In this document: positions 4,194 to 33,164 of the stretch, piece after piece
Position numbering within the stretch: position 1 is the stretch's first letter
Layout of the letters: every line of letters starts with the position of its first letter
Assembly (NCBI GenBank): GCA_964640515.1
Contig: CAZXFG010000001.1
Coordinates: forward strand, 1 to 49,491
Direction: 5' to 3'
Origin: an uncultured Gammaproteobacteria bacterium
GTDB taxonomy: Bacteria; Patescibacteriota; Patescibacteriia; Magasanikbacterales; GWA2-37-8
DNA length: 49,491 bases
Position numbers and translations under genes: made by a program
The notes under the pieces: model-generated
Databases searched by the model: none
What the model saw: the letters and a program-made list of their open reading frames with translations, nothing else
Told to the model about the DNA's origin: nothing

Positions 4194-5816
4194 ATGGCCA
4201 AACCGGCCGCGCGACAAAATGACGATGAAGTTGAGGTAGAAAAAACCGGCCCGGGCGCGGAGGCGGTGAATATTGATATTGACCGGGATGGCGGACCGGG
4301 GACGGGAGGAGCGGCCAATACTGACATGGACATAAAATCAGTATCTGGAGATGGCGCTAAAGCGCGCAAAACAGGACCGGGGAAAATAGAGATAGAGACA
4401 GAAATAGAATTGCCTGAAGAAGCGGCGAATATAGACGAAGAGGCGCTAGCCGCTGCCGCCAACTTAGATCAGGAACCGGAACAAAATGAAACAGCAACAC
4501 CTACGCCTGCTTCATCTACGTCTACACCACCGGCAACGCCGGAAAAAGTAGAACCGAAAAAGGAGGGAGAAGAAACAGCGCCGGAAAAAACAGAACAGCC
4601 GGAGGAAGCGACTCCAAAGGAAAAGGAAGCAGACGAAACAAAGAAGCCGGAGGGAGAGAAACCGGAGGACGCTCCGGAGGCAGAGAGCGATGGCGAGAAT
4701 CCTACCGATGAACAAAAGCCGGAAGAAACGGCCCCCACGCCTGAAGAAACGCCGGCGGAAGATAAAAAAGAATCAGAGGATGCCACCCCGAGTGCGGAAA
4801 AAAAACCAGAAGGAGAAGCTAAGCCAGGAGAAGAAGAAAAACAAAAAGAAGAAGCAAAAAAGAAAGAAGATGAAAAAAAAGCCGCTGATGAAAAAAAATC
4901 GGCTGAAACAGAAACCGAATCGAAAAAACCAGATGGAGAAAAAACAACAGAACCTCCTAAAAAAGAAGGCGAGCAACAAACCGCCGAACCTGCTGAAGAA
5001 AAACCGGCAGAAACCCCTGCGGAGAAGACCCCCCAATCTGAAGAACAAGGTATCGGAACGACAGAGCCACCCAAAATGCCGGAACAGGAAACCGGTGAAG
5101 AAGCGACAGCCGCCGGGAACGCCCCGCCAGAACTGTCGGCCGAAGAACAAGGAAACGTTAACCCGCGACAACCAATTGAACCAGGGACTGACCAACCTAA
5201 GACATCAGGAGCTGCGGAACAGGGAGAAAAAGCCGAGGGTGGAGAACCAAAAAAAATAGAAGGTGGCGACACCGGGGCGGCAGCAACGGAGTTATCTCAA
5301 AAAAAATCAGCCCAAATTAAAACATCTGAAGGGACTACCAGCGATAGTTCTGGCGACATAGGTTCATTATTATCTGGGAACAAACTGGCGGCTATTTCTC
5401 GCTTTATGCCCGGCACTGGCGCAATGATAAACGGTACATTGGGGCAACTCGTAGGAAAAGGGAAAACCGCGGAAGCGAAATTAGCGGTATGCAATATCTT
5501 TTTGTTACAACTGAAACTAATCAAAAAAATTACAAACATCGTTGATGGATTCACACAATGGCTGGAAAAATGGGTTTCCTGGGCGCTTGAACTCTACTGG
5601 TGGACTATTATTGGAGCTATTTTTGATATTTTAATAGTATTGCCGTGTTTTTTACTCTGGTACTTTGTCTTTGACGGGCCAATCAGTAAAATCGTAGAAG
5701 AAATAATAAAAGTAGTGGAACAAGTAAAAAAAATGCTAGAAAAACAAATAGCTGAAGAGCGCGCAAAGCAACTCAAAAAAGCAAAAGAAGAACAAATGGC
5801 TCAGACATCCGGGTAA
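4194..5816 (+). CDS. Hypothetical acidic E/K/P/T-rich low-complexity protein with C-terminal TM anchor
   Basis: 540 aa ORF starting 10 nt after the clpC stop. About 400 aa have almost no hydrophobic residues. C-terminus has WWTIIGAIFDILIVLPCFLLWYFVF followed by a K/E-rich helix. Long ORFs in other frames are low-complexity shadows. Confidence 0.7.
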   Translation: MAKPAARQNDDEVEVEKTGPGAEAVNIDIDRDGGPGTGGAANTDMDIKSVSGDGAKARKTGPGKIEIETEIELPEEAANIDEEALAAAANLDQEPEQNETATPTPASSTSTPPATPEKVEPKKEGEETAPEKTEQPEEATPKEKEADETKKPEGEKPEDAPEAESDGENPTDEQKPEETAPTPEETPAEDKKESEDATPSAEKKPEGEAKPGEEEKQKEEAKKKEDEKKAADEKKSAETETESKKPDGEKTTEPPKKEGEQQTAEPAEEKPAETPAEKTPQSEEQGIGTTEPPKMPEQETGEEATAAGNAPPELSAEEQGNVNPRQPIEPGTDQPKTSGAAEQGEKAEGGEPKKIEGGDTGAAATELSQKKSAQIKTSEGTTSDSSGDIGSLLSGNKLAAISRFMPGTGAMINGTLGQLVGKGKTAEAKLAVCNIFLLQLKLIKKITNIVDGFTQWLEKWVSWALELYWWTIIGAIFDILIVLPCFLLWYFVFDGPISKIVEEIIKVVEQVKKMLEKQIAEERAKQLKKAKEEQMAQTSG

Positions 5817-26660: not shown

Positions 26661-26786
26661 ATACAAAAACGGGTATTACCCTTTCGCAAACAGTGTCGAT
26701 TTGCCCGCGGGCAAATCGCACTTCAGATCTCACCCGCCGCGAGGCGGGTTCCGATATGTTGCTCAAAGGTAATCCCGTTTTTGTAT
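26661..26786 (+). repeat. Structured ~126-nt element, copy 1 (Y-shaped: outer stem plus two hairpins with conserved junctions)
   Basis: It fills the whole convergent intergenic gap. A 19-bp outer stem (one bulged nt) pairs ATACAAAAACGGGTATTACC with GGTAATCCCGTTTTTGTAT. Junction blocks of 18, 14 and 17 nt are identical to the copy at 31751..31870, while both inner stems differ but stay paired. Confidence 0.65.
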
Positions 26787-26792
26787 ATATTA

Positions 26793-29705: not shown

Positions 29706-30524
29706 TTAAATTATTTTTCTCTCACTTGGACGGCGTGTAGCCACCACACAACCCTTTTCCGCCACAATAACCGTGTGCTCATAATGAGCGCAAAGCGACC
29801 CATCAGCCATCACAATCGTCCAGCCATCGGCTCCGGTTTTCACTTTATAACTCCCTAACGCAATCATGGGTTCAATGGCTATCACCATGCCGGGTTTTAA
29901 AATAAATTTCTCCAATTTGGGATCATAATAATTAGGCACGCGAGGTTCTTCGTGCACCTCATGACCCACTCCATGACCCACCAAATCGCGCACAATACCA
30001 TATTTGCCCGCGGAATTCACATAATCTTCTATGGCTCGGCCAATAGAAGCCACGCTATTCCCCGGCTTAACGGCCCGAATACCTACCTCCAGGGCTGTCT
30101 GGGTCACTTTCATCAACTCCTTAGTTTTATCTGGTATGCTGCCAATAGCCACGGTAATGGCCGTATCCGTGAACAAACCACGCCCGGTAACTTTAGAGCC
30201 GTGTAATGGGTATTCCATGCCAATATCAATGCTAAATATATCCCCGTCTTTCAGTATGACATCCTTTTTTGCTATGCCATGCACTAGTTCTTCGTTCACC
30301 GAAGCGCAAATAGAAGTGGGAAAAGGTGTCTCTCCCGCCCGATTCACATAGCCCTTAAAAGCCGGCAATCCTCCGACTTTTAATATCATTTTTTCAGCCA
30401 CTTCATCAATCTCGGCCGTGGAAGCTCCGGGCTGACAAAGCTTAACCAGTTGGGCCACAATTTCTCCCAAAATCTTCCCGCCTTTTCTGATCTGTTGTAT
30501 ATCTTGTTTTGACTTGATAAGCAT
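29706..30524 (-). CDS. map: Methionine aminopeptidase, type I
   Basis: 272 aa. Pita-bread fold metal-ligand regions (DIFSIDIG, VGHGVGHEVHEEP, IAIEPM, HYEHTV). Confidence 0.95.
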   Translation of the reverse strand: MLIKSKQDIQQIRKGGKILGEIVAQLVKLCQPGASTAEIDEVAEKMILKVGGLPAFKGYVNRAGETPFPTSICASVNEELVHGIAKKDVILKDGDIFSIDIGMEYPLHGSKVTGRGLFTDTAITVAIGSIPDKTKELMKVTQTALEVGIRAVKPGNSVASIGRAIEDYVNSAGKYGIVRDLVGHGVGHEVHEEPRVPNYYDPKLEKFILKPGMVIAIEPMIALGSYKVKTGADGWTIVMADGSLCAHYEHTVIVAEKGCVVATRRPSERKII

Positions 30525-30533
30525 AATTTAATT

Positions 30534-31193
30534 TTACGCTGATGTCCGTTCAATTTCTTCCCAAACGCTTTCAATATTTTCCATGCCATCCACTTTTTTG
30601 AGTAAACCCAGCTTTTGATAATAATCAGCAATAGGTTGCAAGGCCTGATTGCCCTGCTCCACAATTCTTTTCCTAATCACCTGTTCATCGTCATCTTTTC
30701 GCACCATTAATTCACCCCCGCATTTCGGGCAAGCGATTAATTCCTTGGTGGCCGGCAACCAGGGGATAATCTCTCCGCATTTGGAACACATTCGCCGCTT
30801 GGTCAAACGATTCAAAGATTCTTCGTCAGTCAAAGCCACTTCTATGACCACCACTTCCTTGCTCAAATTCTTCTGGCCAAAATACTTTTGATATTCTTCA
30901 GCTTGAGCCACATTCCTAACGGCTCCATCCAACACCACCCCCCGCCCTTTATCCAAATACTCATCCATTTTACGAAAAGCCAAACGATAAATCAGCCAGT
31001 CGGAAACCAGCTTGCCGGATTTCATTTCTTCCAGAGCTTGTTTTTCCCTCGGGTCTGCTTGCGCGCCATTGGCTAGCGCGCGCAACAAATCTCCGGTGGA
31101 AATATGACCATAATGATACTTTTCCGCAATCCGCTTGGCTTGAGTGCCTTTTCCGCATCCGGGCGGGCCGATTAAGATAATTATTTTTTTCAT
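30534..31193 (-). CDS. adk: Adenylate kinase with zinc lid
   Basis: The track start at 31241 is a TTG. The ATG at 31193 gives MKKIIILIGPPGCGKGTQA. Lid cysteines CSKC...CPKC. Confidence 0.9.
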   Translation of the reverse strand: MKKIIILIGPPGCGKGTQAKRIAEKYHYGHISTGDLLRALANGAQADPREKQALEEMKSGKLVSDWLIYRLAFRKMDEYLDKGRGVVLDGAVRNVAQAEEYQKYFGQKNLSKEVVVIEVALTDEESLNRLTKRRMCSKCGEIIPWLPATKELIACPKCGGELMVRKDDDEQVIRKRIVEQGNQALQPIADYYQKLGLLKKVDGMENIESVWEEIERTSA

Positions 31194-31296
31194 AGCTGAT
31201 ATATTTTTATTCTCCAAAATGTTCTTTAAAATGATTGACAAAAGAAAGAAAAAATAGACATATTATATAAAAATATGGCTTAGATAAGGCAAAAAT

Positions 31297-31325
31297 ATTA
31301 TACCACCACCCTCCACTCTTGACAA
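31297..31325 (-). promoter_or_regulatory. Candidate promoter for the adk-map operon
   Basis: On the - strand: TTGTCA (31320..31325), 17-nt spacer, TATAAT (31297..31302). Its -35 box overlaps the -35 box of the divergent + strand promoter. Confidence 0.4.
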
Positions 31326-31347
31326 CTCTCTCTCTCTTTGCTATAAT
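31319..31347 (+). promoter_or_regulatory. Perfect-consensus sigma70-type promoter for an orphan + strand transcript
   Basis: TTGACA (31319..31324), exactly 17 nt spacer, TATAAT (31342..31347). Confidence 0.55.
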
Positions 31348-31402
31348 TAAATGTTCAAATATCTGCTATCTGCCAGAACAACCAGAACAAGAAGGAGGGA
31401 TA

Positions 31403-31537
31403 ATGTACTTTCTCAAATACCTGCCGGCCTCGGTGCCGCTCCTCATGGCCTTGGCCCTCTTCGGGGCCGATGCCGAAATGCTCTTCGTTGGAGGATGCAC
31501 GACCTGCATCCTCCTGGAATTGCAGCGGAGGGGGTGA
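31403..31537 (+). CDS. Candidate 44-aa hydrophobic mini-protein (alternatively part of a structured ncRNA)
   Basis: AAGGAGG lies 4 nt upstream of the ATG. Peptide is MYFLKYLPASVPLLMALALFGADAEMLFVGGCTTCILLELQRRG. By hand count, 36 of 44 codons end in G/C, unlike neighbouring genes. Confidence 0.35.
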   Translation: MYFLKYLPASVPLLMALALFGADAEMLFVGGCTTCILLELQRRG

Positions 31538-31617
31538 AAAGAGGACTCCTGCTCCCCAGCTCGAGTCCCCAAGAAGATAAATTTTGTCTTTTTAGGGACG
31601 CTGGAGAACAGACCCTA

Positions 31618-31643
31618 GATCCCCGTTTTCACGGGGATGACAG
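31618..31643 (+). repeat. Hairpin repeat with ATGACAG tail
   Basis: GATCCCCG-ttttca-CGGGGAT followed by GACAG. Confidence 0.5.
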
Positions 31644-31646
31644 ATG

Positions 31647-31683
31647 AAAAACCCCGTCCACTCGGACGGGGTTTTTGTTTTTT
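31647..31683. terminator. Strong bidirectional intrinsic terminator
   Basis: AAAAA-ACCCCGTCC-actc-GGACGGGGT-TTTTTGTTTTTT. It has a U tract in both orientations, ending the orphan + transcript and probably secY read-through on the - strand. Confidence 0.7.
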
Positions 31684-31685
31684 AA

Positions 31686-31739
31686 GGGATTCCTCGACGG
31701 AGTTTATCCCGAGCGTAGTCGAGGGACTCGGGATGACAG
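31686..31739 (+). repeat. Compound hairpin repeat with ATGACAG tail
   Basis: Interleaved arms CCTCGAC/GTCGAGG and ATCCCGAG/CTCGGGAT, ending in GATGACAG. Confidence 0.5.
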
Positions 31740-31750
31740 ATAGGATATAA

Positions 31751-31870
31751 AAAAGAGGAGATATTCTTGAGCAACATATCGGAGCCCCGACCTGGCGTCG
31801 GGGCGAGATCTGAAGTGCGGCTCGCCCGCAGGCGAGACGACACTGTTTGCGAAAGAGTATCTCCTCTTTT
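31751..31870 (-). repeat. Structured ~120-nt element, copy 2 (inverted relative to copy 1)
   Basis: Its reverse complement aligns with 26681..26767. Blocks CTTTCGCAAACAGTGTCG, CGCACTTCAGATCT and TCCGATATGTTGCTCAA are identical. Hairpins CTCGCC-tgcg-GGCGAG and GCCCCGAC-gccag-GTCGGGGC replace those of copy 1. It has its own outer stem AAAAGAGGAGATATTC/GAGTATCTCCTCTTTT. Confidence 0.65.
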
Positions 31871-31889
31871 AATTTTTTATAGGACAAAA

Positions 31890-33164
31890 CTAAATCCGGT
31901 CGTATTCATGCATGGTCACCTGCGCGTCCAGCTGTTTCGCCGTTTCAATGGCCACAGCCACCACGATGAGCAAGCTGGTGCCTCCCCAACGGAGAGCTTG
32001 ACTGCCGGAAGCGGTCTGTAAAATCAAAGGCAGAATAGCGATAACACCCAGGAATAAAGCTCCGATCAAATTGACGCGATTAACTGTATCGTGGAGATAC
32101 TTCTCGGTTTCTTTGCCCGGTCTGATACCCGGTATAAAACCGCCCTGGCGCTGTAAATTTTCAGCGATTTTTTGCGGATGAAAGATTACCGCGGTGTAGA
32201 AAAATGTAAAACCAAATACTAATAAGAAATACGCCACCGCATAGAAAGTCTGGTTCTGAAATATGCCAATCACCTGTGTGGCCGCGCCAACGATCCAATC
32301 AGTCTTGGCCCGGGTGAAAAACTGCGCCACCATGGGTGGAAACAAAATCAAAGAAATAGCGAAGATAATCGGGATAACGCCGGCCATATTCACTCGCAAA
32401 GGCAGATGGGAACTGGATCCGCCATAGGTGCGATTCCCGCGCACCTGCTTGGCGTAATTCACCGGAATGTTGCGCTGGCCTTCACTGATAAACACTACGC
32501 CCACCACGGTCGCCACCGCGATTACACCGAAAAAGATAAAGGTATAAAGGTCGGAAGGGTTATAGTTAATTAAGGCGTTCCTAACCGCTCCCGGAATACT
32601 GGCCACGATACCGGCAAAAATCAAAAGAGAGATGCCGTTGCCAATCTTCTTTTCCGAGATCAATTCACCCAGCCACATCAAAAACATCGTGCCGCCGCTG
32701 ATCGTAATCATGATAGTCGCCAATCTAAAAGTATTCAAATCGGTGATAATCGGGCGGGCTGAACCAGACAATAATTTAATCATGGCGTAGGATTGCAAAA
32801 AAGCCAAAGGCACGGTCAGCCAACGAGTATACATGTTGATTTTTTGCTGGCCATATTCACCTTCTTTAGATAATTCTTCCAACTTAGGCACGATCATGGC
32901 CAAAAGCTGGAAAATAATAGAGGAGGTGATATACGGCCCCACGCCTAACATGACTATAGAAAAATTCTCCATAGTGCCGCCGGAGAAAACATTAAGCATT
33001 CCCAAAATCTGATTACCTTCCAGAAACTGCCTTAAATTGGCCAGATTAACTCCGGGCACAGGAATATGGGCCACTAAACGAAAAATAACCAGCATGGACA
33101 AAACAAAAAGAATCTTATTTCTAATGTCATTAATCGCCCAAGCTTGTTTAATGCGATCCCACAT
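31890..33164 (-). CDS. secY: Preprotein translocase subunit SecY
   Basis: 424 aa, 10-TM pattern, N-terminus ...IRNKILFVLSMLVIFRLVAHIPVPGV. Confidence 0.95.
   Translation of the reverse strand: MWDRIKQAWAINDIRNKILFVLSMLVIFRLVAHIPVPGVNLANLRQFLEGNQILGMLNVFSGGTMENFSIVMLGVGPYITSSIIFQLLAMIVPKLEELSKEGEYGQQKINMYTRWLTVPLAFLQSYAMIKLLSGSARPIITDLNTFRLATIMITISGGTMFLMWLGELISEKKIGNGISLLIFAGIVASIPGAVRNALINYNPSDLYTFIFFGVIAVATVVGVVFISEGQRNIPVNYAKQVRGNRTYGGSSSHLPLRVNMAGVIPIIFAISLILFPPMVAQFFTRAKTDWIVGAATQVIGIFQNQTFYAVAYFLLVFGFTFFYTAVIFHPQKIAENLQRQGGFIPGIRPGKETEKYLHDTVNRVNLIGALFLGVIAILPLILQTASGSQALRWGGTSLLIVVAVAIETAKQLDAQVTMHEYDRI

Follow-up and report, generated by a model that had tools for sequence, protein, structure and literature searches.

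What does the long, G+C-rich gap between secY and adk in contig CAZXFG010000001.1 encode, if anything? The window, that is, the whole stretch of 49,491 nt analysed here, is a compact genome piece with a G+C-content of 44%. Its minus strand carries the spc cluster of ribosomal-protein genes, secY (31890-33164), adk (30534-31193; 219 aa, ATG at 31193) and map, and the nearest named relatives of its SecY belong to Candidatus Magasanikbacteria and to bins labelled 'Patescibacteria group'. The gap (31194..31889, 696 nt) is the longest non-coding stretch of the window and the only G+C-rich one; local G+C in the unit that it harbors rises to 0.58, compared with 0.44 window-wide. An earlier note on this DNA had proposed an orphan, compositionally foreign unit at 31297..31683, either a 44-codon mini-gene resembling a type I toxin messenger RNA (mRNA) or a structured small RNA. 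The answer that we hold with moderate confidence is that the gap contains a self-contained, foreign-looking cassette, antisense to secY and adk, which would express a small membrane peptide, and that the secY-adk junction is an insertion hotspot in this Magasanikbacteria-like Patescibacterium.

The unit is bounded by strong transcription signals. On the plus strand, opposite to the ribosomal operon, lies a promoter sequence TTGACA-17-TATAAT with a TG-extended -10 box (31319..31347), which matches the consensus at 12 of 12 positions and is the only such match on either strand of the window; the transcription start is predicted at about 31354. A candidate adk promoter, TTGTCA-17-TATAAT with TG (11/12), is placed back to back with it on the minus strand (31325..31297) and is probably active, and the two -35 boxes overlap in a shared quasi-palindromic box. 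The downstream boundary is an intrinsic terminator (31647..31683) comprising a stem of 13 pairs with a 4-nt loop (31647..31676), a T-run reaching 31683 and an A-run on the 5′ side. Its shape is bidirectional, and it would end the cassette transcript and can, by its form, also stop transcription of the spc operon. The three signals had all been proposed in the earlier note, and all are present. Elsewhere in the window, near-consensus matches immediately precede genes and a tRNA, therefore a promoter scan carries meaning for this organism. At 1521-1568, between divergent genes, two promoters that each match 11/12 are again placed back to back, which suggests that such close divergent pairs, including the one at 31297-31347, are usual here.

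Between the promoter and the terminator, the plus strand has the organization of a small gene. The 5′ leader (31354..31402) is CA-rich and largely unstructured; it includes the tandem repeat CCAGAACAA x2 (31373..31390) and a Shine–Dalgarno (SD) sequence AAGGAGGG (31392..31399), located 3 nt before the ATG at 31403. This start codon opens ORF44 (31403..31537), an open reading frame (ORF) of 44 codons with the translation MYFLKYLPASVPLLMALALFGADAEMLFVGGCTTCILLELQRRG. The repeat, the SD, the ATG and the ORF are thus arranged as previously described. The predicted peptide features two hydrophobic stretches and a basic C-terminus (QRRG), its grand average of hydropathy is 0.97, and its best 15-aa window scores 1.93. 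The hand count of 36 G/C-ending codons out of 44 was also correct: G+C by codon position is.59/.41/.82, and the G+C of third positions (GC3) in adk, secY, map, rplO and rpsE is.46-.55. The chi-square of ORF44 periodicity was reached by 8 of 5000 dinucleotide-preserving shuffles, and the count of 36 in any phase by 2 of 5000; since so few shuffles attain the observed values, the periodicity does not simply follow from composition. By a rough, hand-made estimate, an SD, a well-spaced ATG and 44 open codons would coincide by chance within 330 nt of such base composition in about 0.2% of cases.

Searches for relatives of the peptide returned only the query itself. A word-indexed search of 5.8 billion clustered proteins found its own gene call by the Joint Genome Institute (JGI), and a full HMMER scan of 1.84 billion representative proteins found its own ORF. 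No significant family match was obtained in Pfam, NCBIfam, PADLOC or PHROGs. The JGI call is a 72-aa ORF whose start lies inside the promoter; standard annotation misses or mis-calls the unit.

The SD of ORF44 is at odds with the initiation signals of the host. Among 48 long ORFs of the window, GGAGG precedes none and any SD 4-mer only about three, and the starts are preceded by A+T-rich runs; no SD was seen among 15 host genes of L175, a related contig discussed below. The window has 10 copies of AGGAGG, of which the one at 31393 lies in the cassette leader right before the ATG. Because host genes lack SD sequences and AGGAGG is rare, the SD of ORF44 is as foreign to the genome as its GC3. 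According to a published survey, about half of the 16S genes in Parcubacteria lack the anti-SD motif (PMC9297842).

The three contigs that contain the ORF44 peptide represent one population, and their gaps are identical. SecY-anchored scans of genome and metagenome collections yielded, among the matches listed, nothing above 76% SecY identity and no homologous gap. Closer relatives, with SecY identities of 92%, 83% and 79-80%, were recovered by protein search and contig look-ups. The 92% contig, which breaks off 63 nt beyond secY, gives no information on the gap. In the 83% relatives (L175-L178), a homologous unit lies at the same place and in the same orientation. The term orphan in the earlier note is therefore appropriate for the peptide sequence and not for the locus.

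Comparison of the two lineages reveals a conserved frame around an unrelated core. Identity between the window and L175 is 84% in the promoters (31297-31347), 44% in the leader, 37% in the ORF, 77% in H3, a long plus-strand hairpin in the 3′ untranslated region just after the stop codon (31542..31611), and 93% in the terminator; the value for the ORF body equals the random level. The -35 box and spacer of the cassette promoter are kept in L175-L178 and, partly, in L084. In L175 they read TTGACAACTCTCTCTCTCTTTG, followed by a -10 region TG-N-TAACCT, with the same back-to-back partner promoter. The L175 terminator is located about 35 nt after the secY stop, and the long hairpin after the stop codon is homologous to H3. 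The conserved anchors TTGACAACTCTCTC and CTGCTCCCCAGCNCGAGTCC flank the variable core, so that this frame, and not the ORF, provides the handle for finding further alleles.

In the L175 core, seven bases separate AAGGAG from the ATG of ORF50, which has 50 codons and the translation MRTDERMKEAKMVYMVVCLGIIAAAWTTRAAIKVARFALKKSLQIIALPL. Its G+C by codon position is.52/.42/.78, with a chi-square reached by 0 of 5000 shuffles, in a genome with 39% G+C where GC3 is.42 in secY and.32 in adk. ORF50 also includes a hydrophobic stretch, MVYMVVCLGIIAAAW, with a best 15-aa window of 2.30. Second codon positions are T-richer than first or third positions in both ORFs (43% in ORF44 and 38% in ORF50), and the SD is retained in both lineages, a specific feature of the cassette against the SD-free host genes. 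The sequences themselves are unrelated: the local protein alignment of ORF44 and ORF50 scores at the shuffle level (41% of shuffles were as good), and the global DNA alignment scores no better than shuffles. The opposite-strand ORFs placed by gene callers have no consistent signature between the two lineages. The proposal of a coding sequence of foreign origin thus gains comparative support from L175-L178 as far as coding is concerned; the composition is atypical of the host, and the origin may well be foreign.

The wider comparison, covering relatives at 74-83% SecY identity, indicates that the secY-adk site accepts diverse cargo. The median gap is 49.5 nt in 62 fetched loci holding both genes, and in L183 and L184 (79% SecY identity) the two genes are 78-95 nt apart and nothing is inserted. 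Genes on the same strand as secY occupy the gap in L179 (an HD-domain protein), L004 (an FGase-like protein), L086 (recG) and L084 (a DUF4143 ATPase). Contig L004 (DATION010000001.1) is titled Candidatus Udaeobacter sp. (Verrucomicrobiota); its bin label looks wrong, because its SecY is 75% identical to that of the window, a Patescibacteria SecY, and its gene order is the same. Four contigs carry cargo in antisense orientation that has a promoter and a terminator of its own. L182 encodes a 164-aa NUDIX protein (4393-4887) with the SD AAGGAGG and a GC3 of.73, against.37-.59 in host genes. ORF134 of L188 (4460-4864) encodes a Cys-rich protein with a hydrophobic N-terminus, is preceded by GGAG and has a GC3 of.72, against.27 in secY. 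ORF233 of L180 (2136-2837; 233 aa) has a clear SD and a GC3 of.70, which does not deviate from that of secY (.66). ORF120 of L084 (11428-11790) shares its gap with the DUF4143 ATPase, is preceded by GGAG, matches PHROG 8937 at E = 3e-7, has a GC3 that does not deviate from the host and lies downstream of a 31-nt stretch common to the window promoter. L180 and L182 have one promoter segment in common and different cargo. As an observation across the site, the foreign-looking cargo genes carry GGAG/GGAGG-type motifs before the ATG, and host genes essentially none. Judged by these sequence features, the ORF44 unit is one of several foreign-looking autonomous cassettes at the secY-adk junction. 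ORF44 was also considered as a fragment of a larger gene or as a relative of ORF50 or ORF120 in another frame; both ideas were rejected, as tblastx and alignment scores stayed at the shuffle level.

In the model that we prefer, the consensus sigma-70-type promoter (31319-31347) would initiate, near 31354, an RNA of about 330 nt, and the unstructured CA-rich leader would offer its canonical SD (31392-31399) to the ribosome. Translation of ORF44 (31403-31537) would give the peptide with its two hydrophobic stretches and basic C-terminus, which would insert in the membrane. H3 (31542-31611) and the terminator (31647-31683) would end and stabilize the mRNA and prevent collision with the convergent spc operon. 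Since the terminator would also cut secY off from adk, adk would rely on its own promoter (31325-31297), and the overlapping -35 boxes mean that the cassette and adk promoters may compete for RNA polymerase. The core may either be constrained in its general character only and have diverged past recognition, or be exchanged between conserved flanks.

A translated small hydrophobic peptide is favored because an SD-led open frame with codon periodicity is held twice, which would not be expected of a non-coding spacer, and has not drifted to host composition. Several points weigh against it. The peptide has no homologue and no family match. Purifying selection on the protein cannot be shown, since ORF44 and ORF50 are unrelated at both the protein and the DNA level; the comparison has just two lineages, and each is invariant, the gap being identical across its contigs. 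The SD-ATG spacing is short (3-4 nt), and the SD may not work in this organism, given the SD-free host genes and the loss of anti-SD motifs reported in PMC9297842. Selection on RNA structure, through the stable hairpins in ORF44, could add to the high GC3. On balance, the unit is most likely a lineage-specific small gene, belonging to no described RNA or protein family, and not a new kind of RNA.

The alternative that survives best, though we consider it unlikely, is a small RNA, wholly or mainly non-coding, whose working part would be the 3′ domain (H3 and the terminator) with the ORF incidental. The region is indeed G+C-rich and strongly structured in an A+T-rich genome: the 332-nt cassette RNA is more stable than 100 of 100 shuffles (z = -5.5), and the L175 unit is likewise strongly structured (z = -7.5). 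Two plus-strand hairpins inside ORF44, noticed earlier, were recovered as well. H1 (31447..31474), GGCCUUGGCCCU-CUUC-GGGGCCGAUGCC, contains GGCCCU-cuuc-GGGGCC with G-U pairs on the plus strand and is present in the minimum-energy and centroid structures; H2 (31490..31514), GGAGGAUGCA-CGACC-UGCAUCCUCC, has a perfect 10-bp stem with the arms GGAGGATGCA and TGCATCCTCC. Neither is conserved in L175. The conserved parts are the promoter, the 3′ hairpin and the terminator, not the ORF, and H3 retains three pairs between the window and L175 through changes on both sides, which fits an RNA function, as does a host that does not use SD sequences. H3, however, folds about equally well on either strand (consensus fold -39.4 vs. 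-42.6 kcal/mol, with G-U pairs giving no help), and in terms of predicted folding may serve either transcript.

The coding signature stands against the small-RNA explanation as well. Both lineages keep the SD, the ATG, a frame of 44-50 codons, significant periodicity and T-richer second positions, and the 5′ 200 nt show no conservation at the RNA level, which weakens the earlier label of structured small RNA. The earlier note had expected an RNA gene to show homologues with a frameshifted ORF and preserved structure; L175 has an intact, unrelated ORF50, and it is in H3 that pairs are kept. Rfam 15 gave nothing at gathering score in the window. At E values up to 10, the window unit, the L175 unit and the second copy of the hairpin element described below produced only weak, terminator-driven matches, e.g., to rnk and Leu leaders, well below the cut-offs. 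ARAGORN found three tRNAs and no transfer-messenger RNA in the window, and inspection by eye revealed no RNase P P4 motifs and no signal recognition particle domain IV motif.

A type I toxin mRNA, in which a small hydrophobic peptide damages the membrane and its translation is restrained by mRNA structure and an antisense RNA, seems improbable to us. The resemblance lies in the product and in the folding: ORF44 and ORF50 are both hydrophobic and shorter than 60 aa, ORF44 has the basic end QRRG, and both mRNAs are highly structured. A further point in favor is that the toxin sequences of type I systems evolve fast. ORF50 gave a weak and non-significant match to the MokW/Hok-like phrog_251 (E = 0.12), and the L175 fold predicts long-range 5′-3′ pairing that encloses the ORF; this pairing is not seen in the window fold. 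The predicted regulation differs from the toxin scheme in other respects too. The earlier note had suggested that CCUCC tracts could sequester the SD, but in the predicted fold a weak local hairpin joins the SD to codons 2-4, and H2 ties up the CCUCC at 31510-31514. The sole promoter-like site on the minus strand within 30500-32500 is the adk promoter, and BLAST of the gap against the 49-kb window detected no complementary copy of the ORF or the leader, though a weak promoter or an RNA encoded beyond the 49-kb window may still supply an antitoxin. With no antitoxin RNA found in the window, an SD not predicted to be occluded by CCUCC and no toxin family match in the four family collections searched, the type I label is a guess. 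The cassette resembles Hok/Sok, TisB/IstR-1, Fst/RNAII and TxpA/RatA in its short hydrophobic peptide gene, own promoter, structured mRNA, poor conservation and terminator shared with a convergent transcript; unlike them, it has no antisense RNA gene found within the window, no SD predicted to be strongly occluded in the window fold and no family match. A literature search turned up no report of a type I system in the candidate phyla radiation (CPR).

Inert debris, in which host promoters and terminators insulate secY from adk around a foreign fragment decaying in a recombination hotspot with hairpins like repetitive extragenic palindromic (REP) sequences, is doubtful: the gap is highly variable among relatives, the window lineage acquired REP-like hairpins plus a repeated hairpin element and lost a small gene by deletion, and the core has no homologue in protein and phage-genome searches, but decay should bring host composition and stop codons, whereas an intact SD-led ORF with a GC3 near 0.8 is present in each of two lineages whose SecY proteins are 83% identical, and the window cassette promoter is a perfect consensus.

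Returning to the small hydrophobic-peptide cassette, its nearest organizational parallels are phage morons and small membrane proteins. Morons share with it a sigma-70-type promoter and an intrinsic terminator of their own around a single ORF, a deviant G+C and a position between genes that are adjacent in relatives. The same promoter-ORF-terminator layout occurs in L175, L180, L182 and L188, and the cargo of L084 at the same site matches a phage protein family. Unlike morons, the cassette lies in the chromosomal spc ribosomal-protein operon and not in a prophage, with no phage genes nearby. A phage genome collection of 50,697 records contained no DNA match to the unit, and in viral contigs, searches by sequence pattern for the promoter, for H3 and for the junction motifs of the hairpin element gave only chance matches, as judged by eye or with covariance model R1. 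Small membrane proteins and dual-function RNAs (AcrZ, KdpF, MgtS; SgrS/SgrT, RNAIII/hld, SR1/SR1P) are alike in that a 30-60-codon ORF on a structured RNA of about 300 nt specifies a transmembrane-like peptide. The cassette is not related to any of them in sequence and has no known partner or target, and here it is the ORF body that differs between lineages and the untranslated frame that is conserved.

A bolder extension, which we regard as a long shot, would make the gap a dedicated expression site. Its conserved frame, with the paired promoters at one end and H3 and the bidirectional terminator at the other, would take up foreign mini-genes that are G+C-rich, SD-dependent and interchangeable. 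In that case, ORF44 and ORF50 would be two alleles of a hypervariable membrane-active peptide, e.g., type I-toxin-like or bacteriocin/immunity-like.

The remaining elements of the gap are additions of the window lineage. Two REP-like hairpins on the plus strand flank the terminator: the first, CTAGATCCCCG-TTTTCA-CGGGGATGACAGATG (31615..31646), is inserted between H3 and the terminator, where L175 has a gap in the alignment, and the second (31703..31743) is also absent from L175. They have the exact 12-mer GGGATGACAGAT in common, 96 nt apart. The palindromes with a fixed flank take the form ..GATCCCCG-loop-CGGGGATGAC.. or ..GGATTCCCGC-loop-GCGGGAATGAC... Look-alikes occur in L086 (1160-1230), L181 (2502-2529) and the distant L125 (11890-12090; 42% SecY identity), which suggests a widespread class of REP-like hairpins. 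They resemble the REP sequences and bacterial interspersed mosaic elements (BIME) of enterobacteria and the Neisseria intergenic mosaic elements (NIME) and dRS3 in being short intergenic palindromes with a fixed flank (GGGATGACAGAT) and look-alikes in other genomes. The likeness is one of form, and the window hairpins are accessories, absent from the L175 unit and outside the cassette.

Next to the secY stop, a hairpin element with a three-way junction (31749..31878, plus strand, about 130 nt, with A- and T-run flanks) is likewise absent from L175. A second copy lies on the minus strand at 26665-26790, downstream of a class II aminoacyl-tRNA synthetase gene. Both copies have identical junction sequences (TTGAGCAACATATCGGA, GAGATCTGAAGTGCG and CGACACTGTTTGCGAAAG) and stems that covary, six pairs differing on both sides, and both are located between convergent transcription units. 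The consensus fold of -45.7 kcal/mol, compared with -28.8 for the reversed strand, indicates a clear strand preference. The copy at 31749..31878 would act as a second, decorated bidirectional terminator outside the ancestral cassette. The element matches no Rfam family, and no further copies were found in the window, the relatives or viral contigs (covariance model R1 returned the two window copies, and a six-frame translation search none). It may represent a novel RNA motif or a small hairpin that is mobile.

The adk leader holds the remains of an older gene. A small conserved gene just upstream of adk in relatives (5699-5995 in L175 and 3273-3563 in L187) encodes 96-98 aa; orf98 of L175 and orf96 of L187 are visibly similar and have no Pfam domain. 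In the window, a minus-strand remnant (31197..31261) comprises the first ~10 and last 8 codons, a 242-nt deletion relative to L175 having removed the interior; MSIFSFFCQSF* and ..FKEHFGE* survive in two different frames. On the other side of the gap, the same-population contig L082 lacks 18 nt of secY (32187-32204), an in-frame loss of six residues giving a SecY of 418 vs. 424 aa; the flanking DNA, the whole gap included, is otherwise identical to the window.

The small proteins and small RNAs of the CPR are almost unexplored. What is noteworthy here is the occurrence of SD-led, GC3-rich genes in an SD-free, A+T-rich genome, together with a conserved untranslated frame around unrelated ORF bodies. 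If expressed, the unit would represent a concrete lineage-specific membrane peptide in an ultra-small symbiont and a natural test of SD-led initiation in a genome whose genes lack SD sequences, and it would mean that foreign cassettes can break up the spc operon, which is otherwise highly conserved. Should the expression-site extension be true, ORF44 and ORF50 would be the first such peptides in the CPR, under a separate SD-dependent translational regime in an SD-free genome.

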